In this document: piece by piece, positions 994 through 37,416 of the stretch
Numbering within the stretch: position 1 is the stretch's first letter
How the letters are laid out: every line of letters starts with the position of its first letter
Source: an uncultured Bacilli bacterium
GTDB taxonomy: Bacteria > Bacillota_I > Bacilli_A > RF39 > UBA660
Reading direction: 5' to 3'
DNA length: 64,000 nucleotides
NCBI GenBank assembly: GCA_910585045.1
Contig: CAJUCD010000006.1
Span: forward strand, 12,580-76,579
The notes under the pieces: model-generated
What the model saw: only the letters and a program-made list of their open reading frames with translations
What the model was told of the DNA's origin: nothing
Database searches by the model: none
Translations under genes and position numbers: made by a program

Positions 994-1005
994 AATAATA
1001 AATAT

Positions 1006-1050
1006 AGATTATTATGAATTTGTTTTTGTAATAATCTTTTTAATTTTTTA
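1006..1050 (+). terminator. possible rho-independent terminator after lysS
   Basis: 9-bp inverted repeat agattatta/taataatct followed by a T-rich run; the loop is large, so this is weak. Confidence 0.35.
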
Positions 1051-1169
1051 ATTATTTTTATATTTTGTTAAAGCAGTTAATAATATTTTCACAAATATTT
1101 CACTAAAAAAATTATATTTTCTCTTTAATTTCAAATATTTTGTGTTATAATTTTATAGGAGGGAAATTT

Positions 1170-2585
1170 ATGAAGAAAAAAGAAAAGAATCATGGTTTAT
1201 TAAAAGCTATTATTTTATGTTGTGTTATTGCATTTGTGTTGACATGGATTATACCTAATGGTGGACTTGCAACATCAACATCAATGAAAAGATTGGGATT
1301 AACTGATTTATCATTTGTTTTTTATCATGCTTTATATTATAGTTTAGATAAAATAATTCTTTTATTTACTATTGGTGGTTTGTATGGAGTATTAACTAAA
1401 ACTAGTGCTTATGATAAATTAACTAGTAATATTGCTAAGAAATTATCAAAGCATAAAACTTTATTTGTAGTATTAGTTTCAGTATTAATAGCATTATTAA
1501 CAAGTGTTATCGCTCAAGGTTATGTATTGATTATCTTTATTCCATTTATTATTTCTATAATGAATAGAATGAAATTAGATAAAATAACTGTATTATCTGC
1601 GACATTTGGTGCGCTATTAGTTGGAACTATGGGTGCTACTTATGGTAGTGAAGGTGTTGTTTATTTAAATCAATATTTTATTGGTACTACACCTAATATT
1701 TTAAAAGATACTTTACTAGTTAGAGCAGGAATTTTATTAGTAGGTTTGGTGTTGTTTAATTTCTTTACAGTTATGCATATGAAAAAAACAACTGACAATA
1801 ATGAAATTGTAGAAGATATATTTTTAGAAGAAAAAGAAGATGAAAGTAAAATTAACACATCTTTACCTATTGTAGTGATTTTAGGTTTAATGTTTATTAT
1901 TACTATTTTAGGTTATGTAAATTGGGCAGATAATTTTGGAATTGAGATATTTAATACATTCCATGAAAAATTAACAACAATTGAAGTTGGTAAAGGGTTC
2001 TTCTTATTTAAGGATCTTCTTGGAACACAACCTGAAGCTTTAGGAACTTGGGAATTAGTATTTTCAATGGCATCTATTGTTTTGATATTTACAGTGATTT
2101 TAGGTTTATGCTATAAGTTTAAATTAGATGAATTTTTTGATGCATACATAAGTGGAATGAAAAAAGTTTTAAAGCCTATCGCTTGTGTTGTTGCAGCTTG
2201 GGTGCTTATGGTAATAGTTTATTTATCACCTTATGTGGCAACAATCATTGGTAAAATTTTAGGTTTAACTGATGGCTTTAATTTAGCTACTATGACATTG
2301 TCTGGTTTAATTACAAATATTTTCCATACAGATTTAGGTTTTTCAGGTTATATTTTAAGTTCTCATTTAGTGGCAGAATATGCTGATCATATTAAGCCTA
2401 TTTATATTATGTTAGTGTCTTTATATGGTTTTGTTCAATTCTTTATACCTACAAGTGCTATTTTAGGTATAGGTGTTACATCTTTAAATGTTAAATATAA
2501 AGATTGGCTAAAATATATTTGGAAATTTGTCTTAGGCATGTTTGTTTGTTTAATAGTAATTTTTGCTTTACTAACAATTATTTAA
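1170..2585 (+). CDS. polytopic membrane transporter, YfcC-like putative ion/amino-acid transporter family
   Basis: About 12 predicted TM helices; N-terminus ...LTWIIPNG resembles YfcC-family proteins; GGAGGG RBS 6 nt before the ATG at 1170 (the ORF track's 1140 start is probably too early). Confidence 0.5.
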   Translation: MKKKEKNHGLLKAIILCCVIAFVLTWIIPNGGLATSTSMKRLGLTDLSFVFYHALYYSLDKIILLFTIGGLYGVLTKTSAYDKLTSNIAKKLSKHKTLFVVLVSVLIALLTSVIAQGYVLIIFIPFIISIMNRMKLDKITVLSATFGALLVGTMGATYGSEGVVYLNQYFIGTTPNILKDTLLVRAGILLVGLVLFNFFTVMHMKKTTDNNEIVEDIFLEEKEDESKINTSLPIVVILGLMFIITILGYVNWADNFGIEIFNTFHEKLTTIEVGKGFFLFKDLLGTQPEALGTWELVFSMASIVLIFTVILGLCYKFKLDEFFDAYISGMKKVLKPIACVVAAWVLMVIVYLSPYVATIIGKILGLTDGFNLATMTLSGLITNIFHTDLGFSGYILSSHLVAEYADHIKPIYIMLVSLYGFVQFFIPTSAILGIGVTSLNVKYKDWLKYIWKFVLGMFVCLIVIFALLTII

Positions 2586-2608
2586 GAAAGCTTTTTAGCT
2601 TTCTTTTT
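2586..2608 (+). terminator. rho-independent terminator
   Basis: gaaagct-tttt-agctttc hairpin followed by TTTTT immediately after the stop codon. Confidence 0.6.
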
Positions 2609-2634
2609 GTGCTTTTAGTAAGGAACAATTTATA

Positions 2635-2663
2635 TTGAAAAAATGCGATTAACATGCTATAAT
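2635..2663 (+). promoter_or_regulatory. sigma-A type promoter of the Tad-like operon
   Basis: TTGAAA (2635-2640), 17-nt spacer, TGcTATAAT extended -10 (2655-2663), about 25 nt upstream of the GAGGT RBS and ATG at 2689. Confidence 0.55.
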
Positions 2664-2688
2664 CTTAGATATGAGGTTGGTGTATACT

Positions 2689-3435
2689 ATGAAAAAAATT
2701 GGAGGTATCGGGGTAGCCTTAATTGTATTTTTTGCAAGTTTAGGGTTAGCTAAAGCAACTTGTGATACGACAGAAATGAATAGGTTACGGAGTTTAGCAT
2801 CTAATGTTAAAACAAGTTATAAAGAGGTTTTTGAACCAATGGAGGATGGTACTTTTACTCCGCCAGATGGTCTTACTGATGAGATGATAGAAGACTATGT
2901 GGCTTATAGAACTTTGTTTGAGGTTTATATTACAAATCTTACAGAGGATTTATATATAGAAGTAAAAGATACAATTAGTGGTAAAACTACTAAGTATACT
3001 TATAAAGATTCTAATAATGGTACAATAACTATTAAGAATTATAATATAGAGGTTATAAATAAATATACAATAAGTATTTATACAACTAATACAGATTGTT
3101 CTAATTCTAAATTAAGAACGATTGAAACTAAGACACCAAGATTTAATAATTATAGTGCTTTAGATTATTGTCAAAATAATAAAGAATATTATATGTGTCA
3201 TATGTACGTTGATTATGATTTGCCACCTATGGAAGATTTTGTGAAAAAAATTAACAAGTACATAACTGATAAAGAAAAAAAACAACAACAAGAGGAAGAG
3301 GATAAAAAGAATCAAGGATTTATAGAATTTTTAAAAGAGAATAAATCAACTATTATAATTGTGTCATCAGTTATAGTTGTTGCAGGGGTAGGGGCTACCG
3401 TTGTGATTATTAGAAGACGGAGGAGAGTAGTATGA
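2689..3435 (+). CDS. secreted protein with signal peptide and C-terminal TM anchor plus RRRRR tail; first gene of the Tad-like operon
   Basis: N-terminal signal peptide (MKKIGGIGVALIVFFASLGLAKA); C-terminal hydrophobic helix followed by RRRRRVV; no LPXTG; stop overlaps the next start; the ORF-track start at 2671 is replaced by the RBS-supported ATG at 2689. Confidence 0.65.
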   Translation: MKKIGGIGVALIVFFASLGLAKATCDTTEMNRLRSLASNVKTSYKEVFEPMEDGTFTPPDGLTDEMIEDYVAYRTLFEVYITNLTEDLYIEVKDTISGKTTKYTYKDSNNGTITIKNYNIEVINKYTISIYTTNTDCSNSKLRTIETKTPRFNNYSALDYCQNNKEYYMCHMYVDYDLPPMEDFVKKINKYITDKEKKQQQEEEDKKNQGFIEFLKENKSTIIIVSSVIVVAGVGATVVIIRRRRRVV

Positions 3436-6400
3436 AAAGATTACTTAAAAGTTTTGGTTTAATTGTATTATTATTCTGTTTAACATTTTTAGAAGATGTA
3501 AATGCAGCTTCAGTTACAGTTGGAGGTTATACTGCAAATGATCCTTATAGTGGAACAGCAACTACAGGGACTAAATCATCTTCAAAGTATGCTTTGAGTG
3601 GAGTTCCTAGTAAAGCAGTTCTTAATACTCCTGGTGGGGCAAGAAGTAATTTACAATATTATTTGCATAACTTAAATGGTAAAGAAATTTATTGTATGGA
3701 TGCAGCATTAGCTTCAACTAATAAAGGATTATATGCTGGTCGTATTTTGTTTTATGAACAAAATACTTTAGAGAAAGCAGCAATAGATTCATGGACTTAT
3801 ATGTATGATATTTCTTTAATGACTGCTTTGATTAGTGGTGGTTATGCTGATTATTTCCAACATAGTTTGGCTGTTCGTACAGTATCAGCTGCTTGGGGTG
3901 CTTTACAATGGAGTACTAATAGTGATGATAAGATTCAAAATAGCGCAGCTAATAATTATTCACGTGATCAAATGTCAGCTTTTTATGGAACAGCTTATAA
4001 GTGGATACAAGAAGATTCTGAAATTCAAGAATATATTGATACAATAAATAAAGCATTACCTTCTGCAAAGGTTGGCTCTCAGTTATCTGGATATTCTGGT
4101 TATTATTGGACTGGTAATTTGGATGGAGCTAAAGCAGCATTTAAAGCAGCATTAAAAGCTTCAGCTGATCATGCATCTAAATTAGGTGGTAAATCTAATA
4201 TTAAATTTGGTACACCGATTCCAGATAGTAAAGTAGAAGAAACAGAAGATTCTAATGGTACTTTAGTTAAAAAACAAATTGAATTTAAGGCAACAGTTGA
4301 AGAATTTAAACAACAAGATGATAATCCTGCTATTTTTAAAATAGATAGTATAGCATTTGATGGTGGTTATAGTATATATGGAGCTTTAAAAGAGCCTCAA
4401 TTATCTTATGTTTCTATTGCAGGTAATACTATTTGTGAGGGTGCAGAGATTTGTGCAGCTTTTGTAGGACGCAATCTTTTAGAAGGTCTAGATTTACCAG
4501 AAAAGTTTGAAATTGTAATTAAAGTTCAAGTTGAGGGTTATAGTAAAGTTAATAATTCTGGAACTCCAATGTTAAACTGTGGAAAGCAACCTATGCCTTA
4601 TACAATAAAATATAGTTATGGTGGTGGTGGATTTAATTCTACTGGTACTAAGAGTGAGTTAGAAAATAATATTGCAATTGTTTGGCGTAATCAAAGTGAT
4701 GCTAAAGATATGCAAAGATTTGTTAGCTATGAAGGAAAACATACTCCTGATGGTTCTGGAGATGATGAGAATAATGATGAATTAACTCCAGGGGAATTAA
4801 AAGGTGAAGTTAGTTTAGTTGAAGATTGTGATTGTGATGAATTAGCAGAAGCTTGTATAGCTACTAATGATAAAAATAGTGATCCTTGTCAACAATTTTT
4901 CGATGCTGGTTGTGATGAGTGTGATGAATTAGAAGTTTTATGTGAATTAGGTGATCAAGCAGCTTGTGATCAATATGATAAAGAATGTAAAAAAATACCT
5001 GAGGATGCACTTTGCCCAACAGGAAAAACTGAAATTACAGAGTGTTGTGATGAGGCAGGAGACTTATTAATTATTGATGGAACTAATGGTTCAGGTTTGA
5101 TGGATGATCCTTATGAAATTCATGGTAATAAAGTAGAAGATATAAAATTATGTTTTGTCGATTATATAGAGGATAATAAAGATCCGATAGATGAAAAAAA
5201 TAATAAATATCAAATGTTAACTGATGATAGAGTAGTTGGAAATCCTTATTGTAAAGTTAATTGTCGTGAGGATTACGCGATAACATTCCCAACTGCTAAA
5301 AGAGTAAATGCTGGTAGATATTTTACTTTCCAAGCTAAAATGGAATCACATAAACAATGTTTTACAAGTAAAATTGATAGAGAACAGTATATTGAAGATA
5401 TGGTTAATTATTTGAAGGCGATAGAGCAAGCTTATAATACTTATCAAGAATATTATAGAGCATGGGAATTATCTGTTCCAAATCCTTCTATTCAAATTCC
5501 AACTGGATGTCAAAATGGAACTGCAGATACTTGTGCGACTATTACAGATATAGCTATTCCTGTTCAAGATGGTGGATCAGCTGGTGTGTCTGGTAATTAT
5601 ACATATGTTGGTTTGCGTTTTGATATTGATGAAGAACGTGGAGAGTTAAAGTCACCACCAACTCCTGAAAATAGAAATGCAACTCATACATTACATACTA
5701 TTTGGGGACCTGCTACTGTGTGTACAGGACAATCGTGTTATATTGATAAATTTGGAAATAAACATTGTTCTCCATGTGACGTGGCAGTTTATCCAAATTA
5801 TGAAGAAAAAACAGAACAAGATTTTAAAGATGATATGGAAAAGGTTTATACTCAAGCTAAGAGTGATTATGAATCTGCTATTCAAGGATTAAAAGAGGCA
5901 ATTAAAAACTTTAAAGGATGTAGCGAATGGGAGACTGATTATAAACCAGATCCAGAAGTAAAATACGATTATGAAGAAGATTATAGAAGTATGGCTGGAA
6001 TGCCAATTGATATGGATGGTTCATATGATGTTGAAGAAACAACTTATTCTTATTGTAGTCAAGAGTGGACTAATGATGTAACTGTTGATGTAGATAAAAC
6101 TTATGAATCATGTAAGGGTGGTTCAGGATTTAGTAGTGATACAAAGGAATCATTGTTATATATTGAAAGCTGTAGTTTAAATGGTTATAACGGTGGTTGT
6201 GTATCTTATAAAGATAATATGTCAAAAGCAATATTTAAAAAGTCAAATGCTGATGCAGCAGGAGAATATAAGCCACAAAGTATTTTCTGGAATATATATC
6301 CAGATGGAAATATTATTACTAATGGTAATACAAGTAATGGAGTATTACTTGAAGAATCATTGCCAGTAGCTCTTGATACTCGTAAAGGTGTTCATGAATA

Positions 6401-7160
6401 TAATGTTGTTGTTAATAATATTGGTGAATTTTATAAAGATGGAACACAAGGTAGATTTGTAGGAAGTAATGGTATTATTGATACTGAAATCAATTATGTT
6501 TGTTCTTATTTAGTAAATATACCTGATGCTGTTATGACTTGTGATTCAAATGGTTGTGAAGGACCAAATTGTACAAATGATTGTGTTGGACCAAATTGTG
6601 ATGACTTCGAGTGCGAAGGTGAAAATTGTGTTTCTGATTGTGTAAGTTCTGGATGTATGTATGATAAAGATTCAGGTTTAACTTATTATGAAAAAGAAGT
6701 AACTCTTGGTAATTTATTCCCTCAAGGAACAGCTGCTTCAAACTGGGATTCTAGTCAAAGCTCAAAAGCAGCCGCAACAATTAAAGAAATTGAATCTGGT
6801 GATGGAAGTTTAGATAATCCAGGAGGAAATGCTATTTTTGATCAAGAACCAATTTTAAGTATTACATTTACACCATCTATTTCTCAAGCAATTCTAAAAT
6901 ATAATGAAGATGCTGAGAGTGATGGTGGGTATTCTAATAAAACAGTTTATTGTAAAGATGTTGGTGGATATGAAAAAGTTGGATGTTACAGCGAATTTAT
7001 GGATGATTTCATAGATGGTAATATTAATGGTGTAAGTACTGCTGATTCTATTAATTCTAAAAGTTTAATTGGAAAAGATAGATCTTATCGAAGTAGTGTT
7101 GATAAATATTTCCAATTATGGGGTGCTATTAGTGATAAAATAGGCCCATCTTGGAAATAA
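3432..7160 (+). CDS. giant (1242 aa) secreted cysteine-rich acidic protein; candidate substrate, adhesin or tip protein of the Tad-like system
   Basis: Signal peptide ...EDVNA/AS; more than 60 Cys in clustered CxC, CDxC and CxGPNC modules (e.g. DCDCDELAEAC..., CDSNGCEGPNCTNDCVGPNCDDFECEGENC); no TM or anchor; GGAGGAG RBS; 4-nt overlap with the upstream gene. Confidence 0.85.
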   Translation: MKRLLKSFGLIVLLFCLTFLEDVNAASVTVGGYTANDPYSGTATTGTKSSSKYALSGVPSKAVLNTPGGARSNLQYYLHNLNGKEIYCMDAALASTNKGLYAGRILFYEQNTLEKAAIDSWTYMYDISLMTALISGGYADYFQHSLAVRTVSAAWGALQWSTNSDDKIQNSAANNYSRDQMSAFYGTAYKWIQEDSEIQEYIDTINKALPSAKVGSQLSGYSGYYWTGNLDGAKAAFKAALKASADHASKLGGKSNIKFGTPIPDSKVEETEDSNGTLVKKQIEFKATVEEFKQQDDNPAIFKIDSIAFDGGYSIYGALKEPQLSYVSIAGNTICEGAEICAAFVGRNLLEGLDLPEKFEIVIKVQVEGYSKVNNSGTPMLNCGKQPMPYTIKYSYGGGGFNSTGTKSELENNIAIVWRNQSDAKDMQRFVSYEGKHTPDGSGDDENNDELTPGELKGEVSLVEDCDCDELAEACIATNDKNSDPCQQFFDAGCDECDELEVLCELGDQAACDQYDKECKKIPEDALCPTGKTEITECCDEAGDLLIIDGTNGSGLMDDPYEIHGNKVEDIKLCFVDYIEDNKDPIDEKNNKYQMLTDDRVVGNPYCKVNCREDYAITFPTAKRVNAGRYFTFQAKMESHKQCFTSKIDREQYIEDMVNYLKAIEQAYNTYQEYYRAWELSVPNPSIQIPTGCQNGTADTCATITDIAIPVQDGGSAGVSGNYTYVGLRFDIDEERGELKSPPTPENRNATHTLHTIWGPATVCTGQSCYIDKFGNKHCSPCDVAVYPNYEEKTEQDFKDDMEKVYTQAKSDYESAIQGLKEAIKNFKGCSEWETDYKPDPEVKYDYEEDYRSMAGMPIDMDGSYDVEETTYSYCSQEWTNDVTVDVDKTYESCKGGSGFSSDTKESLLYIESCSLNGYNGGCVSYKDNMSKAIFKKSNADAAGEYKPQSIFWNIYPDGNIITNGNTSNGVLLEESLPVALDTRKGVHEYNVVVNNIGEFYKDGTQGRFVGSNGIIDTEINYVCSYLVNIPDAVMTCDSNGCEGPNCTNDCVGPNCDDFECEGENCVSDCVSSGCMYDKDSGLTYYEKEVTLGNLFPQGTAASNWDSSQSSKAAATIKEIESGDGSLDNPGGNAIFDQEPILSITFTPSISQAILKYNEDAESDGGYSNKTVYCKDVGGYEKVGCYSEFMDDFIDGNINGVSTADSINSKSLIGKDRSYRSSVDKYFQLWGAISDKIGPSWK

Positions 7161-7176
7161 GGAAGGAGTGTAATAT

Positions 7177-8625
7177 ATGAATACTTCTTATTGGGGGTAT
7201 TGGTTAGTTGCAATGGGTGTTGCTATTGTTGGACTGATGATTTCAGTACAAGGTATTACAACTAATACAGCTCAAAATTATTATGGTTTAAAAGAGGTGG
7301 TAGATGCATCTATGTTAGAGGCTATAGATGCAGCCTACTATCGTGATTATAATGAAGTTAAAATTGATAAAGAAAAATTTATGGAAGTTTTAATTAGAAA
7401 ATTGCCAACTTTTATAGGAGTAAATGAAACATATGAGCTTAATTTTTATGCTTTATATGAAGCTCCGCCTAAAGTTAGTGTAGAGATTAAAACTCATAGT
7501 GGAACTAGTTTTGTAAGTTCTAAAGATTATGATACTGTTACAAGAGTTAGTGCAGTATTACAAGTATTTAATAAAATTGATAGTGTTGGTATAGCGGATG
7601 GTGGAAGTGGTAGTTCTGGTAGTGGCGGAACTACTTCTAAACCAAGCAATGGTTCTACTAGTAATGGTAATGGTACCAATAATGGAACTGTAAATAAACC
7701 TGATACTCCTGTTGGAGGGGAAACATCTGGAAGTGGCGATGATGAAACATGTAAGTCTGGTATAACTTCTAATGAATTAAGCGGAATGCATGGAACTGCA
7801 ATGGTTGCTAAAGCTATTTATGAAAAAGCGGATTTTAAAGAAACTAGTAGAAGTGCTACACCAGGTGTTAAATTTGATATTTTAGGTGAAAATGGAAATA
7901 ATTGGGCTATTCAATATGATGGCAAATGTGGCTGGGTAGATAGCAATTATATGGCTATTAATATGGCTGAGTATATACCTAATGTTGAATTTAATATTAC
8001 TAATGCTTCGTCAAGTATTTATAAGTCTTCTGAAAAGAATATTCCTGGTTTGACAGGACAAAAACTTTATAGTAGCGAATATACTAATAGTTGGGTTCCA
8101 GGTACATTTAGTTTTGCAAAGAAATTAAAAGTAGCAGCAGCTAATGCAAAAGCAGCTGGAGATACAATTGTTGTAAATGATGCTTATAGACCAACTTCAG
8201 TTTCAAGTTTTGCTAATCAAAAATTAAAAGCATTATATAATAGTGATTCTGTTGTTCGTGAGAATATAGAGTTTAGTGTTGGTGAAAGCCTTAAGAAGCA
8301 TTCTTGGGGAATCAGCTGGTTTTTAGCTCAAAATTTATCTACACATAATACTGGTTGTGCAGTTGATGCATCTTTAAAGGGAAAAGCAATGCCTACAGCT
8401 ATGCATGAGCTTAGTACAAAAGCGATAAAATATTGGGGTCCTAGTACTTCTCATGAATCAAAAAATTATTCTGTCGGAATGAAGAATAATGTTCATGCTC
8501 AAGATTTAAGTAGATATATGATGAGTGCAGGTCTTACAGATTTAGCTTCAGAATGGTGGCATTATCAAGATAGTGCTTGTCATTCAAAGATTGGTAGTGG
8601 AGCTAATTTCTGGAGTGCAGTGTAG
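7177..8625 (+). CDS. membrane-anchored peptidoglycan hydrolase: N-terminal TM, G/S/T/N-rich linker, SH3b-like domain and M15 (VanY-like D-Ala-D-Ala carboxypeptidase) domain
   Basis: N-terminal TM helix; low-complexity GGSGSSGSGGTTSKPSNGSTSNGNGTNNG; SH3b-like GVKFDIL...WAIQYDGKCGWVDSNYM; M15 signature S-x-H-x-x-G-x-A-V-D (STHNTGCAVDASL); GGAAGGAG RBS. Confidence 0.75.
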   Translation: MNTSYWGYWLVAMGVAIVGLMISVQGITTNTAQNYYGLKEVVDASMLEAIDAAYYRDYNEVKIDKEKFMEVLIRKLPTFIGVNETYELNFYALYEAPPKVSVEIKTHSGTSFVSSKDYDTVTRVSAVLQVFNKIDSVGIADGGSGSSGSGGTTSKPSNGSTSNGNGTNNGTVNKPDTPVGGETSGSGDDETCKSGITSNELSGMHGTAMVAKAIYEKADFKETSRSATPGVKFDILGENGNNWAIQYDGKCGWVDSNYMAINMAEYIPNVEFNITNASSSIYKSSEKNIPGLTGQKLYSSEYTNSWVPGTFSFAKKLKVAAANAKAAGDTIVVNDAYRPTSVSSFANQKLKALYNSDSVVRENIEFSVGESLKKHSWGISWFLAQNLSTHNTGCAVDASLKGKAMPTAMHELSTKAIKYWGPSTSHESKNYSVGMKNNVHAQDLSRYMMSAGLTDLASEWWHYQDSACHSKIGSGANFWSAV

Positions 8626-8637
8626 AAGGAGGATAAA

Positions 8638-9450
8638 ATGGGAAATATAGTAACGACTTTTAAAAGATTCTTGTCAAATAAGAATACTGTTACAATAATT
8701 GGTGTAATGCTAGGAATAGTAGTACTTTATGTTGGTTATAACTATAGAGTTAATCATGCTATTGAGACAGTTTCAATTCCTTATGCTAAACAGTCAATTA
8801 AATCAACAGAGCAGATTACTCAGGATTTAATTGGTACAACTGAGGTTCTTAGATCTCTAGTTACAAGTAATAAAAATTTATTATCTCGTACTAATCAGGT
8901 GATAAATTCAACTGCACCTTTTTGTGTAAATGTTGGAACTAGTGTACCACAAGGAGCTTTCTTTTATAATGAGCAAGTTCTACCTTGTAAAGGTATAAAT
9001 AGTAATGCTTTAAAGGATATGCCAGATGGTTATAAAGCAGTTGCTCTTAATGTAGATCTTCAATCAACTTATGGTAATTCAATGTACCCTGGAGATTATA
9101 TTGATTTATATGTAAAAATGACAAGTGATGAAGGTAAAATTATATATGGTGAATTTATAACAAAATTACCAATTTTGGATGTACGTGACAGTAATGCTAA
9201 AAGTTTATTTTACGGATCATCTGTTAGTGGAACTCCAGCATTATTATTGTTTGCAGTTCCTCAAGAATTATATTTATTAATTAGTAAAGCTAATTATGTA
9301 GGTAGTGTAGAGTTGGTTCCAGTTCCTGGTAATGCATCTTATACTAGCGCACCAGGTGAAACAGCAGTTAAAAGCGAGTATTTAAGAAATCAAATTCTTG
9401 ATTATACTCAAGATATTCCTGATGAAGTTATACCTGATAGTGTTTCATAA
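8638..9450 (+). CDS. CpaB/RcpC-like pilus-assembly protein (N-terminal TM plus SAF-like domain)
   Basis: Single N-terminal TM; region VSIPYAKQSIKSTEQITQDLIGTTEV resembles the CpaB SAF-domain start; sits immediately upstream of the CpaF-family ATPase. Confidence 0.45.
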   Translation: MGNIVTTFKRFLSNKNTVTIIGVMLGIVVLYVGYNYRVNHAIETVSIPYAKQSIKSTEQITQDLIGTTEVLRSLVTSNKNLLSRTNQVINSTAPFCVNVGTSVPQGAFFYNEQVLPCKGINSNALKDMPDGYKAVALNVDLQSTYGNSMYPGDYIDLYVKMTSDEGKIIYGEFITKLPILDVRDSNAKSLFYGSSVSGTPALLLFAVPQELYLLISKANYVGSVELVPVPGNASYTSAPGETAVKSEYLRNQILDYTQDIPDEVIPDSVS

Positions 9451-9484
9451 ATAAAAGAATAAAGAATAAGGGAGGTGTTCATAA

Positions 9485-10579
9485 ATGAATGATGCAATAT
9501 TTTCGCAGATTGATTTTGGACCTTTAAAGGAATTTATAGATATTGATGATATTACAGATATCTCATATTCTAATGGTGGACAATTGTGGCTTAAATCTTT
9601 AACTAAAGGAGTTTATAGAGTTGAAAGACCAGAAATAAATAATCCACTGATAGAAAAGCTAGCGTTCCAATGTTCAAATGTAATGGGAAAAACATTCAAT
9701 ATGGCACACCCTTTTTTAGATGCTGAAAGTACAGAATTACGTCTTAACTTTGTTCACGATTCGATAGCTACTAATGGAGTAGCACTAGTTATTCGTAAAA
9801 CGCCAGCGAAGATTCGTCTTAATAAGGAAAAATTACTAAATGAAGAATATGTTAGAGCGGATTTATTAGATTTTCTACTTAATTGTGTACAGGGTCATGC
9901 TAATATAATTGTTAGTGGGGAAACTGGTTCTGGTAAAACAGAGCTTGTTAAGTATCTTGCTAGTACTACTAAAGAAAATGAAAAAATAATAACTATAGAA
10001 GATACTTTGGAGTTGCACTTAGATAGAATATTTCCACATCGAGATATTGTAGCGATGAAAACAAATAATATTGCTTCTTATTCGGATGTTTTAGTTACAT
10101 GTATGAGACAGAATCCAATTTGGATATTATTATCAGAGGTTCGTAGTGCTGAGGCAGTAATGGCAGTACGTAACTCAATATCTTCAGGACATCATATTAT
10201 TTCGACAATCCATTCAGATAAAGCAGCATTAATTCCAATGCGTATGTATAGTTTGATAGAGTCTAACATTGATGTTGAACAGTTTGTTACTACTATACAT
10301 AGATATGTACAAATTGGAATATATGTAAAAGGCTATATGAGTGAGAAATTAGGAAGATTTCAACGTGAAATAATGGAAATTTGTGAATTTTATGTTGATG
10401 ATGATAATAAACCGCAAGTTAATACAATATTTCAAAAAACTTTGGATGGGAAATATACTTTAAATAATCCTACAAAACATCTTAGAAGCTATTTAGCAAT
10501 TCAAGGTGTTATCTTACCAGATGATTTATTTCATATAGAAAGTAGTAATATTGGTTCTGAGATGATAGAGTCTTTGTAG
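9485..10579 (+). CDS. CpaF/TadA-family (VirB11-like) secretion ATPase
   Basis: Walker A GETGSGKTE, Walker B/Asp box WILLSEVRSAEA, His box GHHIISTIHSD; 364 aa; GGGAGG RBS. Confidence 0.85.
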   Translation: MNDAIFSQIDFGPLKEFIDIDDITDISYSNGGQLWLKSLTKGVYRVERPEINNPLIEKLAFQCSNVMGKTFNMAHPFLDAESTELRLNFVHDSIATNGVALVIRKTPAKIRLNKEKLLNEEYVRADLLDFLLNCVQGHANIIVSGETGSGKTELVKYLASTTKENEKIITIEDTLELHLDRIFPHRDIVAMKTNNIASYSDVLVTCMRQNPIWILLSEVRSAEAVMAVRNSISSGHHIISTIHSDKAALIPMRMYSLIESNIDVEQFVTTIHRYVQIGIYVKGYMSEKLGRFQREIMEICEFYVDDDNKPQVNTIFQKTLDGKYTLNNPTKHLRSYLAIQGVILPDDLFHIESSNIGSEMIESL

Positions 10580-10592
10580 AGGGAGGATTTGA

Positions 10593-11489
10593 ATGGAATT
10601 AGTTATTTTAATGGCAATAGCGTTATTTGTAATTATATATCGCAGAAATGATGGTAGTGAATCCTTTTATACTTTTATGAAATCTCAGTTTGGAATTGTA
10701 TATCAGAAATATGCTCCTTATAGTTTTCAGACTATAAGTGCAAAAATGAAAGAATTAAAACAAGAATATACAATGAAAGACTATATGATTCAAATTGTGG
10801 TATTAGGTGGTTTAGCTGGTGGTATAGCATATTTATATTTTTATAGTTTAATAATGGTTGCTGCGTATGGTGGAGTTGCAATAGCATTGATTCCATATTT
10901 GGCTTGGTTAAGAAGTAAAAGGCTTTATAGTGAGTATATATTTGAGCAAATTCAAGTTTATACAACTAATGTTATTATGGAATTTAATACAACACAAAGT
11001 TTTGTTAAATCATTAGAAGGTGTTAGAGATTCTGGTATTGTTGAAGATCCTGTTTTGGAAGATATAAAAATGATGATTAATATGTCTTATCAAAATGGTA
11101 CTATAGATGAATCTATTGAGTATTTTAATCAAAAATATCCATATTATATGGTTAAAAATATGCATCAATTGTTTTTACAAATTACCAAAGAAGGTGCTAA
11201 AGATTCTGGTGAAGCTTTAGAAAATATGAGTATGGATATAGACTCTTTAGTTGAAGGCGTTTATAGGGACCAAATGGACCGTAAACAATTTCATACTAAA
11301 TTTATAACATTTGCTTTGGTTTTATTTTTGTTAGTTTTAGTTATGCAAGTTTTATTAGGGAAAGATAGTTATTTAAAGCTTTTAGATATGTGGTATGTTC
11401 ATATAATATTACATGCTATAATTTTTATTAATTGCTTTTTCTTACTCTCAGGTGAAAAATATTATAATGATGATGTGGGGGTAGAATAA
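10593..11489 (+). CDS. TadB-like inner-membrane platform protein (T2SS-F-like)
   Basis: N-terminal TM, ~150-aa cytoplasmic domain, C-terminal TM helices; position directly after the ATPase; GAGGGAGG RBS. Confidence 0.55.
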   Translation: MELVILMAIALFVIIYRRNDGSESFYTFMKSQFGIVYQKYAPYSFQTISAKMKELKQEYTMKDYMIQIVVLGGLAGGIAYLYFYSLIMVAAYGGVAIALIPYLAWLRSKRLYSEYIFEQIQVYTTNVIMEFNTTQSFVKSLEGVRDSGIVEDPVLEDIKMMINMSYQNGTIDESIEYFNQKYPYYMVKNMHQLFLQITKEGAKDSGEALENMSMDIDSLVEGVYRDQMDRKQFHTKFITFALVLFLLVLVMQVLLGKDSYLKLLDMWYVHIILHAIIFINCFFLLSGEKYYNDDVGVE

Positions 11490-12277
11490 TGCAAATAGAG
11501 ATAGCTATTATAGCTGCGATTATTTTTTATATATTAACTAAAAGTGGTAAAATTAGTATAAGTAAATTAATTGCAGATAATGAAATGTATTTAAGAAAAT
11601 TAAAAGAATCTGATTATGATTTTTATGTAAGAGCAAAATATGGTGATTCAGTTAATCCAGATATTTTATTTAATAAGAGATTACAAAATGCTTTTATTAT
11701 TATAGCTTTGACGTTTTGTTTGCTTTTGAATAATATGTCATATGTTTATGCTTTAGTTTGTTTAATAGTAGGTTTTTTGTTCTTTAAATTAGATTATATG
11801 AATTTAAAAAGCTATTATAAAAAACATTTAAATGATATTGATACTATGCTTCCATATTATTTAAAAGGTTTAGAAATTTTAATTCAACATTATACGGTGC
11901 CAGTAGCTATTGGTAAATCAATGGAGGATGCTCCTGAGATTTTTAGAGATGGTTTAAAAAATTTAATTAATGAGATTAATGCTGGTAATGATACAATTGA
12001 ACCTTATATGGAGTTTGCAAGACAATACCCAGTTCGTGATTCAATGAGAATGATGCGTTTGTTATATCGTCTTAGTTTAGGAAGACAGGAGAGAAAGCAA
12101 GAGCAATTATTGGCTTTTTCAAAAACAATTTCTAATTTACAGCAAAAAGCAAGAGAAACTAAATATAAAAACCGTTTGGATAAAATGGAAGGTAAGACAA
12201 TGAGCATGCTTATTACTACTGGATTAGGAGTTATGGTACTTTTGATATTAGCAGTAATAATGTTAATGGGAATTTAG
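11489..12277 (+). CDS. TadC-like inner-membrane platform protein (T2SS-F-like)
   Basis: Same TM / cytoplasmic domain / TM architecture; start overlaps the previous stop (ATGA). Confidence 0.55.
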   Translation: MQIEIAIIAAIIFYILTKSGKISISKLIADNEMYLRKLKESDYDFYVRAKYGDSVNPDILFNKRLQNAFIIIALTFCLLLNNMSYVYALVCLIVGFLFFKLDYMNLKSYYKKHLNDIDTMLPYYLKGLEILIQHYTVPVAIGKSMEDAPEIFRDGLKNLINEINAGNDTIEPYMEFARQYPVRDSMRMMRLLYRLSLGRQERKQEQLLAFSKTISNLQQKARETKYKNRLDKMEGKTMSMLITTGLGVMVLLILAVIMLMGI

Positions 12278-12358
12278 TTTACATTTAATGTGTTAATGAC
12301 TTGACATTTAATATTAGTTAAGATAGAATTATATTATATAGGAAAGCGAGGAAAGTGT

Positions 12359-12790
12359 ATGTTAATAATGGCAGCGCCTAAGGTGTGTTCTGATTTACAA
12401 GAAGTATGGCAAATTGTGGGATGGATATTATGGGTTTTTAAAATTGTAATTCCAATTATAATTATTATATTTGGTATGATAGATTTAGGAAAAGCTGTAG
12501 TTGCTAGTAAAGATGATGAAATAAAGAAATCTATTAAATCATTAGCTATGAGAGCAGTTGCAGGTGTAATAATATTCTTTATTCCAGCTTTAGTTGCAGC
12601 TATCTTTGGTATGGTGGATAGTTTCCAAGAAGTTGAAGGAGAATATGCTGTTTGTGAATTATGTATTAAGAATCCTGGTAAATGCGGTAGCAATGCTGGA
12701 TCTGGTAATAATGATCGTGGAACTAAGGAGTCTTGTACTAGTGCTGGCGGAGTTTGGGATAGTAAAACAAATACTTGCCAAGGCATTTAA
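12359..12790 (+). CDS. small two-helix membrane protein with cysteine-rich C-terminal tail; candidate pilin/major subunit (VirB2/TrbC-like topology, not Flp-like)
   Basis: Two hydrophobic helices (IVGWILWVFKIVIPIIIIIFGMI and AVAGVIIFFIPALVAAIFGMV) separated by a charged loop; tail CELCIKNPGKCGS...CTSAGGVWDSKTNTC; last gene before the operon terminator. Confidence 0.5.
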   Translation: MLIMAAPKVCSDLQEVWQIVGWILWVFKIVIPIIIIIFGMIDLGKAVVASKDDEIKKSIKSLAMRAVAGVIIFFIPALVAAIFGMVDSFQEVEGEYAVCELCIKNPGKCGSNAGSGNNDRGTKESCTSAGGVWDSKTNTCQGI

Positions 12791-12810
12791 TAATATTAAT
12801 TTAAGAAAAT

Positions 12811-12838
12811 ATTCCAGAAATGGAATTTTTTTGTTTTT
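12811..12838 (+). terminator. rho-independent terminator ending the Tad-like operon
   Basis: attcca-gaaa-tggaat hairpin followed by TTTTTTTGTTTTT. Confidence 0.65.
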
Positions 12839-12891
12839 AATGCATAAAAGTATTGACTTTAAACATAATATTTACTATAATTTAGTAGTAC

Positions 12892-12967
12892 TGCTCGTTT
12901 AGCTCAGTCGGTAGAGCGCACGGCTGTTAACCGTTAGGTCGTAGGTTCGAGTCCTACAACGAGCGCC
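12892..12967 (+). tRNA. tRNA-Asn (anticodon GTT)
   Basis: Cloverleaf with 7-bp acceptor gctcgtt/aacgagc, anticodon loop ctGTTaa, T-loop ggttcgagtcc, 3' CCA. Confidence 0.9.
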
Positions 12968-12978
12968 ATTTAGTATAT

Positions 12979-13017
12979 TAACAAACCTAGATAATTACTG
13001 GGTTTGTTTTATTTTTG
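12979..13017. repeat. tRNA-trailer hairpin element, copy 1 (second copy at 47877-47914)
   Basis: aacaaacc-N13-ggtttgtt followed by TTATTTTTG; 36 of 38 nt identical to 47877-47914. Confidence 0.55.
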
Positions 13018-13078
13018 TCTGTTTTTTTGAAAATGGCAAAATAAAAGAGATACTTAAGAAATCTTATGGAATATCTCT

Positions 13079-13113
13079 CCGTAATATACAAGTAATATAC
13101 AGGTAATATACAA
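13079..13113. repeat. three tandem direct repeats of gtaatatacaN; shorter two-copy version at 47967-47988
   Basis: cgtaatatacaa gtaatatacag gtaatatacaa; same 22-nt block recurs at 47967-47988. Confidence 0.5.
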
Positions 13114-13249
13114 ATATGTAATTAAATTTTTTATGTTATAAAATATTTTTTGGCACCTTTTTTCGGCACTATATAAAGAGATTAAGAAAATTACAATAAC
13201 ATTTCAATTCTTTACAAATAAAAATCTATCAGTAAGATAGATTTCTTTG

Positions 13250-13735
13250 TTATTTGCAACTATAGTCTTTTAAGTTATTTTCTTTAAATTCATCTAAAGA
13301 AATATTTGTAGAAGAATAGAAGCTATCATCATCAAAATTTTCGCCTAAAGATTCTTTTAAAGAGTCAATATTAAGTTTAGTATAATCAACTGTCATAACA
13401 TATTTTAAATTAGTATCAGATTCTTTGGTGTATTTAACATCCATGCCTTCTATTTCGTTGAATAGGTTAGCAAATATTACTCCAAATGAATAAGACATTT
13501 CTAACATATCTTTATCCATTTCAGAAATGTTAATATTTTCAACTTTGGTAACTTTATTATTTTTATAAGTAATATTCATTGTGTCATCAATTTTTTTACC
13601 ATCATCATCAGTATCAATTTTGTTACAACTTAATGTGCCAGAATTAGTTTTTGTTTCTGGAGAATTTTCTTTTTTTTCACATCCAGTTAAAAAGAAGGTA
13701 GCAGCTAATAATGCTATTAGTAAACCTTTTTTCAT
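13250..13735 (-). CDS. lipoprotein, function unknown
   Basis: Lipobox LLAATFFLTG|C after MKKGLLIAL; GAGGTG RBS; acidic secreted domain. Confidence 0.6.
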   Translation of the reverse strand: MKKGLLIALLAATFFLTGCEKKENSPETKTNSGTLSCNKIDTDDDGKKIDDTMNITYKNNKVTKVENINISEMDKDMLEMSYSFGVIFANLFNEIEGMDVKYTKESDTNLKYVMTVDYTKLNIDSLKESLGENFDDDSFYSSTNISLDEFKENNLKDYSCK

Positions 13736-13949
13736 AAAACTCAATTTCACACCTCACTTTCTAAATTTTTTATTAAAATACAAAAGTGATTTAACCATTA
13801 TCGTTAAGATAGTGTTATATACAAATTATAATAAAAATTATGTAATAAATCAAACTTATTTGTAAAATTAAATGAAATATTTGCCATTGACTATAAATAC
13901 GTTTGTATGTTATTATGAATATAACTTAAGGATTATAAAGGTATTTAAT

Positions 13950-16298
13950 ATGAAAGAAAATATAGTTATTATTGCGGAAAATAGTAAAAAGAAAAAAATT
14001 TTGATGAAACTTAGTAGAAGTAAGTTATTGTATAATATTAAATTTTTAACTTTTAAAGAATTAAAGAAAAAGATTTTTTTTGATTATGATAATAAAACAT
14101 TAGAATATGTTATGAAAAATTATAATGTTGGTTTAAGTGTTGCTAGAATATATTTGGATAATTTATATTTTTTGAAGGATATTAATTATAAAAAAGTGCA
14201 ATTTTTAATAGATTTAAAAAAAGATTTGGAAGATAAGAATTTATTAATCTTAGATCACAATTTTAAAGATTGGATTAATAATAAAAAAGTAATTGTTTAT
14301 GGATATAAGAAGTTTTCAAAAGAACAAGAAATTCTTTTAAATAGTTTAGAAGTTAATTATGAAATTAAAGATGATAATTTAAAGCAATGTATGCCAGTAG
14401 TTTATGAAGCAAAAACTATGGAAGATGAAGCCCAATTTGTTGTTACTAAGATTAGTGAATTATTGAGTAAAAAAATTGATATTAATAAAATTAAGCTCGT
14501 TATTAGTAGTGACTATAGAAATGTTGTAATAAGATATTTTAGATTGTTTAATATTCCTATTAATATGGATAGTTTATCTTCTTTTTATAGTACAATTCTT
14601 GCCCAAGATTTTTTAAAGAATTATGATAATTTAGATATTGCTGATAATATTTTATTATTAAGAGAAAAATATAGTAATGTTAATGATTTAGTAAATATTA
14701 TTAATAGATCTGTTTTAGTAGAAAATAAAGAATTAAGAAAAGAATTTATAATAGAAGATTTGAAGAATTGTAAAGTAAAACCTAAAGTTTATGACAAAGC
14801 TGTTTCTATTTGTGATTTAGAGGAAATAGAAGAAGATGATTATGCTTTTATAATGGGATTTAATATAAATTTTTATCCTAAAGTATTTCGTGATGAAGAA
14901 TATTTGAGTGATGAGATAAAAGAAGCTTTAGGAATTGATATTAGTTCTTATAAAAATATGATAGCTAAAGAATATATTAAAGATGTGATACTTAGTTTGC
15001 CTAATTTATATCTTACTTATAAACTTTCTAGTGCTAAAGGAGTTTTTTATCCTTCACTTTTAATTCAGGAAATGGGATTACGAGTGGAAACTATAGAAAT
15101 GGAAGCTGCAGTTTCTTTTTCAAAAATTTGGTCTAAAATTAAATATGCACATGATTTGGATAATTTTTATAAGTTTAATGTAATTGGAGACAATTTAGGA
15201 TTATATAAGAATAGTTTGATGATAGATTATAGAGAGTATAATAATGAATTTAATGGTATAAATAATGACTTTTATAAGGAAAGCTTAGGAAATGAGTTAA
15301 GTTTAGCTTATACTAATATGGAAATGTATAATGAGTGTGCATTTAGATATTATTTAAGTAAAGTTTTAAAAATAGATTTGTTTGAGGAAAGTTTTAAAAC
15401 TATTATAGGTAATATAGTACATCATATTCTAGAGCTAGGTTTAAAAAAGGATATTGATATTAATGTAGAAATTATAAAGTTCATTAAAGAAAAAGATTAT
15501 GTTTTAACGTCAAGAGAATATTTTTATTTAGAGATGTTAAGTGAGGATATAAAAAAAATATTAAGGGTAATAAAGAAACAATCTTTACATAGTAAATTAA
15601 ATAAATATTTATTTGAAAATGAATTTTATGTTTATAAAGATAGACAAGATATTAATGTTTCATTTAAGGGATTAATAGATAAAGTTATGTATGCTGATAT
15701 TAATGGTAAAGAAGTTATTATGGTGGTTGATTATAAAACAGGAAGTACTTTAGTTACTTTGGATAATTTAGAGTATGGCTTAAATATTCAGTTGCCTATT
15801 TATTTATATTTATTAAAAAATTCTGAAAGATTTAAAGATGCTGTTATTGCTGGCTTTTATGTTCAAAAAGTTTTAGATAGCGTGCCATCAATAGTGGATG
15901 GTAAAAGTATTAATGAATTAAGAGAAGAAAATATGAGATTGCAGGGTTATTCTAATAGTTCTAATAGTATTTTAGAATTAATTGATGATGAGTATCAAGA
16001 TAGTAAGATTATAAAAGGTTTGAGATTTAAAACAAATGGAGAACTATATAGTAGTGCTAAAGTATTATCTAGTAAAGATATGGATGATTTGACAGTAAAA
16101 GTAGATTTAAAGATTGAAGAATGCATTAGCAATATTTTGGAAGGTAAGTTTGATATTAACCCTAAAGTAATCAATAATAAAAATATTTCATGTACATATT
16201 GTAAATTTAAAGATATTTGTTTTAAGTGTAAGAAAGATGAAATAGTGTTAGGAGGTGAAGTTGATGAATTGGACGAAGGAACAGGAGTTAGCAATTAA
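13950..16298 (+). CDS. addB: helicase-nuclease AddAB subunit B (compact form with RecB-like nuclease and Fe-S Cys cluster)
   Basis: C-terminal RecB-family nuclease motif VVDYKTGS and Cys cluster CTYCKFKDICFKC; directly upstream of addA with overlapping ends; shorter than typical AddB. Confidence 0.7.
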   Translation: MKENIVIIAENSKKKKILMKLSRSKLLYNIKFLTFKELKKKIFFDYDNKTLEYVMKNYNVGLSVARIYLDNLYFLKDINYKKVQFLIDLKKDLEDKNLLILDHNFKDWINNKKVIVYGYKKFSKEQEILLNSLEVNYEIKDDNLKQCMPVVYEAKTMEDEAQFVVTKISELLSKKIDINKIKLVISSDYRNVVIRYFRLFNIPINMDSLSSFYSTILAQDFLKNYDNLDIADNILLLREKYSNVNDLVNIINRSVLVENKELRKEFIIEDLKNCKVKPKVYDKAVSICDLEEIEEDDYAFIMGFNINFYPKVFRDEEYLSDEIKEALGIDISSYKNMIAKEYIKDVILSLPNLYLTYKLSSAKGVFYPSLLIQEMGLRVETIEMEAAVSFSKIWSKIKYAHDLDNFYKFNVIGDNLGLYKNSLMIDYREYNNEFNGINNDFYKESLGNELSLAYTNMEMYNECAFRYYLSKVLKIDLFEESFKTIIGNIVHHILELGLKKDIDINVEIIKFIKEKDYVLTSREYFYLEMLSEDIKKILRVIKKQSLHSKLNKYLFENEFYVYKDRQDINVSFKGLIDKVMYADINGKEVIMVVDYKTGSTLVTLDNLEYGLNIQLPIYLYLLKNSERFKDAVIAGFYVQKVLDSVPSIVDGKSINELREENMRLQGYSNSSNSILELIDDEYQDSKIIKGLRFKTNGELYSSAKVLSSKDMDDLTVKVDLKIEECISNILEGKFDINPKVINNKNISCTYCKFKDICFKCKKDEIVLGGEVDELDEGTGVSN

Positions 16299-22866: not shown

Positions 22867-22916
22867 ATTCTCACCTTTATAAGTATAGCAAAAAAAAAAG
22901 AAGTTCACAATAAATG

Positions 22917-25490: not shown

Positions 25491-25586
25491 GTGCTTTTAA
25501 AAGAGATAAACTAGTTTTAAAATATGAACGACATTCTTTGACATAATTTTAAGGTTTGTTTTTATATAATATTAATGGTGAATGAT

Positions 25587-37388: not shown

Positions 37389-37416
37389 GTTGGCATAAAA
37401 AAAGGGGTAATGGTTG

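Follow-up and report, generated by a model that had tools for sequence, protein, structure and literature searches.

Canonical Tad or Flp systems (type IVc; Aggregatibacter Tad, Caulobacter Cpa and Bifidobacterium Tad) combine a CpaF/TadA-type motor with a TadB/TadC pair and a CpaB/RcpC protein, and a similar set in the same order is predicted for an operon of eight genes (g1 to g8) in the 64,000 nt stretch of contig CAJUCD010000006.1 analysed here (the window, 64 kb in length, from an uncultured Bacilli bacterium of the RF39 lineage). The operon differs from canonical Tad/Flp systems in its short motor ATPase (364 amino acids, aa), which is equally near to VirB11 and CpaF, and in having no recognised Flp prepilin, TadV, TadZ or TadE/F; it carries instead a DUF5411 protein, the surface proteins g1 and g2, and a gene for a VirB2-like protein. 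We favour, with roughly even confidence, the reading that the operon belongs, as a reduced, chromosomal and vertically inherited variant, to a family of Tad-like envelope machines spread across Firmicutes; the machine would display the large protein g2, and g8 is its candidate filament subunit. What the module is can be stated with far more certainty than what it does. The interest of the locus rests on the extreme conservation of its motor, on the combination of a Tad-like motor and a VirB2-like protein, and on the light that it may shed on Gram-positive conjugative plasmids.

Parts of this gene set have been described before. A computational study predicted a 'secretion-related' operon of 8–9 genes in Roseburia, Ruminococcus and Eubacterium, with >2000 detections (Miller, Stern and Burstein 2022, PMC9523054), which likewise combines a large surface protein and DUF5411 with a CpaF ATPase and a PilC/GspF-like protein, but the variant described has one 434 aa PilC-like protein, an internalin-like protein and several peptides of 24–77 aa, and neither CpaB nor a VirB2-like protein was reported. 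In the family of plasmid pLS20, gene 37 was listed as a putative VirB11 and genes 36 and 38–45 as unknown, and no pilus homologues were said to be encoded (PMC8557374), while the product of pLS20 gene 34, Tie, was described in 2024 as a wall-associated adhesin which forms surface foci and is required for mating (PMC11730352). The Pfam family PF18895 (T4SS_pilin), to which the g8 family belongs, serves as a marker of VirB2-like pilins in type IV secretion system (T4SS) loci of Patescibacteria, which are also chromosomal, relaxase-free loci of reduced-genome bacteria with multiple paralogues, but there the pilins lie beside VirB4/VirB6-type T4SS genes, without a Tad-like motor (bioRxiv 10.1101/2025.01.22.634366). 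The Tad-like pilus cluster of TANB77 is also specific to an uncultured lineage of gut Firmicutes, but it has TadZ and CpaE, a 640 aa TadA, a fused TadB-C and seven pilin-like genes, and lacks DUF5411 and VirB2-like proteins (PMC11680825). In the literature we found no characterisation of DUF4320, of a Tad-like reading of the pLS20 genes, or of RF39 bacteria with Tad. The module family is widespread yet experimentally unstudied, and was previously known from computational prediction and plasmid sequences. The first-pass annotation of this DNA held that the gene set matches nothing known, which was too strong, as DUF5411 together with CpaF had been flagged in Clostridia (PMC9523054) and the same ordered module is present on Gram-positive conjugative plasmids. 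Hidden Markov model (HMM) searches with the eight proteins, as that annotation had proposed, placed g3 and g5 clearly, g4 and g8 through their families, and g6 and g7 remotely, with g1 and g2 falling in no family.

Gene order of the operon and its plasmid relatives

Judged from the loci compared, the family is marked by its gene order, which runs from a large secreted surface protein through DUF5411, CpaB (where present), a CpaF/VirB11-family ATPase, a TadB-like and a TadC-like protein to a VirB2-like T4SS_pilin protein. The search for the same arrangement in other Firmicutes found it in the chromosomes of gut bacteria, represented by metagenome-assembled genomes (MAGs), and as a module on plasmids. 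The best plasmid relatives of g5 are from Bacillaceae. Our family HMMs match the gene at the corresponding position in every plasmid locus, with 113–198 bits for the g5 HMM, and the position of DUF5411, upstream of (CpaB and) the ATPase, is occupied in all of them. The plasmids concerned are of medical and industrial relevance, and include Bacillus anthracis pXO1 and pXO2-size plasmids, pHTbeta of vancomycin-resistant Enterococcus faecium, pLS20-type plasmids of natto strains and Listeria plasmids.

A CpaB-bearing form of the module is present on a Priestia koreensis plasmid, pXO1, the pAW63-type plasmid pBMB71, a B. cereus plasmid and an Exiguobacterium plasmid. Its order is a wall-binding protein, a large protein (780–990 aa), DUF5411 (26–31 bits in Pfam), CpaB, a TadZ-like protein, the CpaF/VirB11 ATPase, a TadB-like protein, a TadC-like protein, a Flp-like peptide and DUF4320, with a TadV-like peptidase nearby. 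The annotated CpaB proteins, with SAF/RcpC domains, score 72–116 bits with the g4 family HMM, and the TadB-like and TadC-like proteins score 16–44 and 24–47 bits, respectively. These modules differ from the operon in being plasmid-borne and in having the TadV-like peptidase, the TadZ-like ATPase, Flp-like pilins of 67–89 aa and DUF4320, and no homologue of g8 was found in them.

The CpaB-less form, found on a pLS20-type plasmid (genes 34–45) and on E. faecium pHTbeta (pMG1-like), consists of a thioester/SpaA adhesin, a DUF5411-like protein of ~126–140 aa, an ATPase (160–163 bits on the g5 HMM), paralogous TadB-like and TadC-like membrane proteins, DUF4320, short peptides and a VirB2-like pilin. 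The membrane proteins of pHTbeta score 77 and 60 bits with broadened profiles, and those of the pLS20-type plasmid 10–16 bits with narrower profiles. Both loci differ from the operon in that they are situated inside conjugation operons with VirD4, lack CpaB and contain DUF4320 and single-helix peptides of 47–50 aa, and in that their adhesins, with thioester or SpaA domains, are unrelated to g2. DUF4320 and the short single-helix peptides are absent from the window and from its close clade, with analogous genes present in sister clades. The product of pLS20 gene 36 (L085:8365–8745) scores 25.5 bits on DUF5411 and that of gene 45 (L085:12954–13184) 32.1 bits on T4SS_pilin (cut-off 26.6); in the pLS20 literature both genes are of unknown function, and a VirB2 homologue is said to be lacking. 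The pHTbeta pilin matches both TrbC/VirB2 (PF04956, 56 bits) and T4SS_pilin (26.7 bits). Since pLS20 and pHTbeta also combine a Tad-like motor with a VirB2-like hairpin, this pairing, odd as it looked in the window, is taken to be old and recurrent. The match between g2 and the large plasmid proteins is one of position and signal peptide only (best score 17.6 bits, Priestia), and g2 is not homologous to Tie, SpaA-type or Ig-like proteins.

In the window, the eight genes (Table 1) are separated by gaps of −4, 16, 12, 34, 13, −1 and 81 nt from g1 to g8, with a GGAGG-type ribosome-binding site in front of every start. The promoter-like site upstream of g1 matches 11/12 consensus positions and has an extended TG, making it the top consensus match in positions 900–14000 (~13 kb), and it lies just downstream of the terminator (2584–2605) of a DcuC-like gene. 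The packing, ribosome-binding sites and this promoter agree with the first-pass annotation, but the 'clean terminator' proposed there amounts to no more than a weak hairpin ahead of a T-run (fold energy −8.3 kcal/mol; z = −1.5; 17/200 shuffles fold equally well), which was missed by the consensus scan. A second promoter-like site is located in the gap between g7 and g8. Its −35 and −10 boxes and their 17 nt spacing are kept in 34/34 related loci while the sequence of the spacer varies, which is good evidence that the site is functional, and on this conservation g8 is taken to be transcribed from its own promoter.

Table 1. Predicted features of the operon, in positions of the window
Feature	Position	Strand	Basis or description
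Operon promoter-like site, TTGAAA-17 nt-TGcTATAAT	2635–2663	+	Consensus scan
g1, 248 aa, secreted	2689–3435 (longest open reading frame from 2671)	+	Signal peptide, C-terminal membrane helix
g2, 1242 aa, secreted, 44 Cys	3432–7160	+	Signal peptide, family alignment
g3, membrane-anchored DUF5411 and M15 protein	7177–8625	+	Pfam matches, motifs
g3, DUF5411 domain (PF17424), aa 1–130	7177–7566	+	Pfam E = 7e-43, 146 bits
g3, weak SH3b-like segment, aa ~227–259	~7855–7953	+	SH3_3 E = 0.053
g3, M15 VanX/VanY-type peptidase domain, aa 310–465	8104–8571	+	Peptidase_M15 E = 6e-10
g4, CpaB/RcpC-like	8638–9450	+	One N-terminal membrane helix, then SAF-like and RcpC-like domains
g5, 364 aa CpaF/VirB11-family secretion ATPase	9485–10579	+	Pfam T2SSE
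g6, 298 aa polytopic membrane protein, likely TadB-like (remote T2SSF)	10593–11489	+	Family HMM, hhalign
g7, 262 aa polytopic membrane protein, g6 paralogue, likely TadC-like	11489–12277	+	Position, remote similarity
g8 promoter-like site, TTGACA-17 nt-TAGAAT	12301–12329	+	Consensus scan, g7-g8 gap
g8, 143 aa VirB2-like (Pfam T4SS_pilin) two-helix hairpin	12359–12790	+	PF18895, topology
Probable operon terminator, weak hairpin (6 bp core, GAAA loop) then T-run	~12805–12838	+	Fold energy

Motor, collar and platform candidates

The Walker A motif of g5 (GETGSGKT, aa 145–152) and its Asp, Walker B and His boxes are intact, and the protein scores 94.7 bits on Pfam T2SSE (cut-off 24.9). It scores 109 bits on the NCBIfam VirB11 model and 97 bits on the TadA-type model, both under the equivalog cut-offs, and its nearest sequences in the PDB are CpaF (1e-15), FlaI (2e-14) and VirB11 (2e-13). 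The first-pass assignment to the CpaF/TadA family is consistent with its place in the T2SSE superfamily and with CpaF as nearest solved sequence. A ComGA/GspE/PilB-type assignment was rejected (44–75 bits versus cut-offs of 300–675), as was membership of the operon in SpoIIIA, ComG (competence), type IVa pilus or type II secretion systems (T2SS), on the scores of the ATPase and on missing partners. Searches of the operon proteins against PHROGs gave generic ATPase matches only. A second, canonical GspE/PilB/ComGA-type ATPase (409 bits on T2SSE) is encoded at 30727–31935 on the reverse strand without adjacent platform or pilin genes, and this lone gene suggests that another type IV filament or competence system is probably present elsewhere in the genome.

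The CpaB-like nature of g4, the putative collar, is supported by its family, as RcpC is matched by 29/33 members and SAF by 10/33. As a single sequence, g4 matches RcpC (E = 1e-4) and TIGR03177 (E = 1e-6) below their cut-offs.

For g6 and g7, the likeness to TadB and TadC was reached through the plasmid modules. The gene following the ATPase on the Priestia koreensis plasmid is annotated as 'T2SS F family' and scores 24.2 bits on T2SSF (cut-off 25.2); the g6 family HMM matches this protein with 44 bits, and T2SSF is the sole and top weak match in 4/5 of such plasmid proteins. The g6 and g7 alignments were broadened with plasmid and distant homologues (termed g6x and g7x), and hhalign then aligned g6x with g7x over the whole length at 97–98.6% (E = 3e-11 to 4e-15), which had been negative with the narrow alignments and became positive only after broadening. 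A bona fide Rhizobium TadB (locus L091) is matched by g6x with 22.7 bits (hhalign 86.9%, 189 columns) and the adjacent TadC by g7x with 11 bits (hhalign 39%), and in the plasmid modules the second membrane gene scores 47–60 bits with the g7 profile. When HMMER was run exhaustively with the g6 profile, it returned only 294 representatives, and the ten distant full-length ones carry no T2SSF domain. By these comparisons g6 and g7 are paralogues of each other, and they are likely to be remote TadB-like and TadC-like proteins. The two platform proteins of the first-pass annotation are thus likely but remote assignments, which fit in order, topology and alignment to the Rhizobium pair and lack a direct Pfam match.

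Surface proteins, the VirB2-like protein and the absent pilins

The most likely start of g1 is the ATG at 2689 (MKKIGG..., beginning a signal peptide), which is matched by independent gene calls on six other contigs. Apart from this shift of the start, g1 is as the first-pass annotation had it, namely a secreted protein that ends in a membrane helix and an RRRRR tail; its ectodomain spans ~190 aa and contains 4 Cys. The protein has no match in Pfam, NCBIfam or PHROG, is 31–45% identical among relatives, and is always located immediately 5′ of g2. The secreted and Cys-rich nature of g2 was likewise confirmed. Its N-terminal ~450 aa are hypervariable, whereas a middle block (aa 595–650) and the C-terminal third, with CxxxxC repeats (aa 1037–1075) and a terminal GPSWK, are conserved. 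A word-indexed search with the conserved C-terminal third returned one protein, and searches of PDB sequences with g2, g3, g4 or g6 (profile or sequence) gave nothing useful, with no match for either the g2 family profile or the g6 profile. The motif GP[SA]WK is conserved at the end of g2 homologues (window 7143–7157), and AWK ends some of the g8 paralogues of sister clades (L051:17211–17579; L058:17181–17588), a shared ending that may be a C-terminal recognition tag.

The N-terminal DUF5411 domain of g3 is followed by a Gly/Ser/Asn linker, and an AlphaFold2 (AF2) model of the domain (predicted local distance difference test, pLDDT, 69) has a long N-terminal helix packed against a 3-stranded sheet. 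The zinc and catalytic motifs of the M15 domain are intact (STHNTGCAVD, aa 388–397; EWWH, aa 459–462). The M15 half of the membrane-anchored SH3b and M15 hydrolase proposed in the first-pass annotation is well founded, but the SH3b domain is only weakly detected, and is clearer in a g3 homologue (E = 1e-5). In most relatives g3 consists of the DUF5411 domain alone (~137 aa), from which the wall hydrolase appears to be a lineage-specific addition and not a fixed part of the machine. L030 and L078 carry tandem copies of the g1-g2-g3 triplet, with g1-g2 duplicated in L025 and g3 in L040, and the duplication of the triplet as a unit suggests that the three genes form one functional unit.

Alone, g8 matches PF18895 with E = 0.011; in its family this domain is found in 24/30 members (best E = 4.9e-8), and T4SS_CagC, the Cag VirB2 homologue, in 3. 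As the first-pass annotation had noted, g8 is a pilin-like protein with two membrane helices and a Cys-bearing tail. One Cys precedes helix 1 and three follow helix 2, in a C-terminal YxxCxxC...C tail, and all are invariant or nearly so in the family. Since paralogues bear true signal peptides, the N-terminus of g8 is predicted to be outside the cell. In several sister-clade loci g8 is present in 2–3 copies and g4 is duplicated. An antisense open reading frame (12334–12786, reverse strand, 150 aa) overlaps g8 nearly exactly; nothing supports it, and it is in all likelihood spurious.

The first-pass annotation found no Flp prepilin, TadV, TadZ or TadE/F gene in the operon, and this holds, with no Flp-like, TadE-like, TadZ or prepilin-peptidase gene present. 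Scanning the 64 kb window for leader motifs also gave no Flp- or TadE-type open reading frame, and reading the larger frames of the window, most of them without a profile scan, gave no TadZ- or TadV-like gene. In the sister-clade loci L054, L057, L058 and L062, additional genes are located between g7 and g8, consisting of two Flp-like genes of 53–91 aa beginning MKEATGELNMTV... and having Cys-rich tails, two TadE-like genes of 150–190 aa, and one gene of ~330 aa. The leader motif of these pilins, M[KR]E[AS]..G, is similar to the way DUF5411 starts in that clade (MKEAYWGYWL). In L054 (5019–6210, reverse strand) and the same region of L058, genes for an Rce1/CPBP intramembrane protease and for a thioredoxin-like CxxC protein with a membrane anchor lie just upstream of the cluster, and a CPBP protease also precedes the pHTbeta module (L092:1532–1975); these proteins may function in disulfide formation or in processing of the Cys-rich surface parts.

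The sister-clade genes would allow the operon to be part of an ordinary Tad (Flp) adhesive pilus, with its pilin, pseudopilin and peptidase genes elsewhere in the genome and g8 as an accessory membrane protein. The TadV-like peptidase, TadZ, Flp-like pilins and DUF4320 of the plasmid relatives are consistent with this, as is the finding that the pilin-bearing sister-clade loci have no TadV within 10 kb, so that unlinked maturation genes are normal in the group, and the second GspE/PilB-type ATPase of the window hints at another filament system able to supply a peptidase. However, neither the window nor any of the 42 close-clade loci contains the leader motif of the sister-clade pilins, and while the pilin block is missing in every locus of the close clade, g8 and its promoter were kept in every one. 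We therefore think an ordinary Tad pilus unlikely. As sister clades still carry Flp-like and TadE-like genes, the operon is better described as a reduced variant than as a new kind of system, which, on the gene content of these loci, lost or never had the small pilins and retained g8 with its promoter.

In the favoured reading of a reduced envelope machine, g1 and g2 would leave the cell via Sec, and g3, g4, g6, g7 and g8 would insert in the membrane. A hexamer of g5 would dock on the platform of g6 and g7, with g4 as extracytoplasmic collar, and ATP hydrolysis would power the building of a short fibre or piston out of subunits embedded in the membrane, a role for which the separately transcribed g8 is the only candidate in the reduced operon. 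The pilin-shaped DUF5411 domain of g3 could couple the conserved C-terminal part of g2 to this structure, so that the hypervariable N-terminal part would reach past the wall and serve as an adhesin or recognition head, with g1 as its membrane-bound partner. The M15 domain that g3 carries in this lineage may open or trim the peptidoglycan locally. By analogy with the plasmids, where the large upstream protein is a proven or predicted adhesin (Tie in pLS20, the SpaA/thioester protein in pHTbeta), and in view of the fast evolution of g1 and g2, adhesion or partner recognition is the most likely output.

Several observations weigh against this reading. VirB2-type pilins are known to be assembled by VirB4-based T4SS and not by Tad motors, and no sequence similarity was detectable between g8 and the plasmid VirB2-like proteins beyond their common Pfam membership. 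Neither g6 nor g7 has a direct match in Pfam or NCBIfam, their likeness to T2SSF is remote and transitive (via the plasmid protein), and the AF2 model of g6, from an alignment of 23 sequences, is poor (pLDDT 57), with only noise in a Foldseek search of the PDB. No adhesin domain is recognisable in g2, as the Pfam scan gave no domain in any of 26 family members (0/26). The Flp-like pilins, TadE/DUF4320-like proteins, TadZ and TadV that are absent here are present, some or all of them, in sister clades and in plasmid modules, so the genes for the fibre subunits may lie elsewhere, or no fibre may be needed for the machine to work. A filament has not been seen in any family member.

Without a stable filament, the operon could encode a T2SS-like device for release or wall crossing, in which g2, once exported by Sec, and perhaps other proteins would be pushed through the thick wall into the medium by a short pseudopilus or piston. 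The Sec signal peptides of g1 and g2, the wall hydrolase of g3 in this lineage and the lack of a long-fibre pilin gene fit such a device. The conserved C-terminal third of g2 and its terminal motif are rather those expected of a retained, docked protein, the hydrolase fusion is missing in most relatives, and the positional counterparts on plasmids are wall-associated adhesins (PMC11730352), which together make release into the medium quite unlikely. The first-pass suggestion of a new surface-filament or protein-export apparatus is retained as a probable surface or envelope machine, not as a new kind of one, and protein export in the strict sense is unlikely because g1 and g2 carry ordinary Sec signal peptides. 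No Tad-type system is known to act as a secretion piston in monoderms, which also counts against the release device.

A bolder form of the envelope machine proposed here is that its Tad-type motor (CpaF/VirB11-like ATPase, TadB/C-like platform and CpaB collar) pulls the two-helix, VirB2-type g8 out of the membrane and polymerises it into a Gram-positive surface filament tipped by a complex of DUF5411 and g2, making it a hybrid of two filament lineages that are regarded as separate, a proposal that we put forward as improbable on present data. It would bear on an old puzzle, as plasmids of the pLS20 and pMG1 types mate efficiently in liquid though Gram-positive conjugation systems are said to lack pili, and the presence of a Tad-like motor and a VirB2-like pilin beside an adhesin on these plasmids offers a testable idea. 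If true, the pilus-like organelle long missing from Gram-positive conjugation would be this same hybrid in pLS20 and pHTbeta, and the chromosomal copy would serve an abundant, uncultured lineage of gut Bacilli as a core surface organelle, one under unusually strong constraint.

Chromosomal inheritance and neighbouring genes

An identical ATPase was found on contigs of many gut metagenomes and in one NCBI MAG, always between lysS-dcuC and addBA. The operon is flanked by lysS, the DcuC-like gene, a lipoprotein gene, addB and addA, and the same arrangement is found in dozens of species. Scanning genomes for the DUF5411 domain gave relatives in 324 species-level genomes, and a search with g6 gave at least ~8000 matches. 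The best 78 DUF5411 loci come from gut MAGs of human, mouse, rabbit, chicken and goat, all of them uncultured 'Bacilli', 'Tenericutes' or 'Mycoplasma sp. CAG', and the order from g1 to g8 is kept in nearly all of these 78. From its genomic context, the operon is chromosomal and vertically inherited across ~70 species-level gut MAGs. The window also encodes the germination protease GPR (24450–25190) and SpoIIP (25575–26516), which point to a walled spore-former despite the labels Mycoplasma, Tenericutes or Mycoplasmatota carried by relatives.

The motor genes are more conserved than their housekeeping neighbours. In a comparison of window positions 9485–12277 with L012, L018, L021 and L042, the motor proteins were 83–93% identical where lysyl-tRNA synthetase (LysRS), AddA and AddB were 54–66% identical. 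Taken singly, g5 is 91–94% identical in species with a LysRS identity of 65%, and g6 and g7 are 83–90% identical; g1 and g2 are fast-evolving, with only 23–45% identity between the same species. Synonymous third positions are equally saturated in g5 to g7 and in the flanking genes, and the GC content at third codon positions (GC3) of the operon equals that of the flanks and the host, which argues for strong purifying selection on a native locus, and not for recent transfer. An origin as a mobile element was rejected on the host-like GC3, the housekeeping flanks and the synonymous divergence equal to that of the flanks. The constraint on g5 to g7 is unusually strong for a pilus-type motor. As the motor proteins are more conserved than LysRS, AddA and AddB, the machine stands out as central to the life of these uncultured bacteria, and the fast evolution of g1 and g2 and the duplicated g1-g2-g3 cassettes suggest a function in surface recognition that is under diversifying pressure, with the host, mucus, other bacteria or phage as possible partners.

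The closest characterised contexts of the module are the conjugation operons of pLS20, pHTbeta, pXO1 and pAW63-type plasmids, and g8 is in a VirB2-like family and a tRNA-Asn gene follows the operon, as would be expected if the locus were a remnant or domesticated piece of a conjugative element that still serves DNA transfer or uptake. However, the housekeeping flanks are in constant order across dozens of species, the composition is host-like and the synonymous divergence equals that of the flanking genes. Furthermore, no VirB4, VirD4 or relaxase was seen among the window open reading frames of ≥110 aa or in the 10 kb flanks of six contigs (from translations and Pfam labels, without a dedicated profile scan), nor an integrase among the window frames, which were mostly read by eye without a profile scan. 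A conjugative remnant is accordingly very unlikely.

The tRNA-Asn gene (12893–12968), directly 3′ of the operon, has its own promoter-like site (12853–12881) and a strong terminator (12980–13008), and in the region 12853–13008 there was no integrase or repeat pointing to an insertion site. Elsewhere in the window, two loci unrelated to the operon were observed, one at 21919–22908 (reverse strand) encoding a transglutaminase-core protein with a signal-anchor, and the other at 37414–38861 encoding an Amidoligase_2 protein followed by a small overlapping open reading frame.

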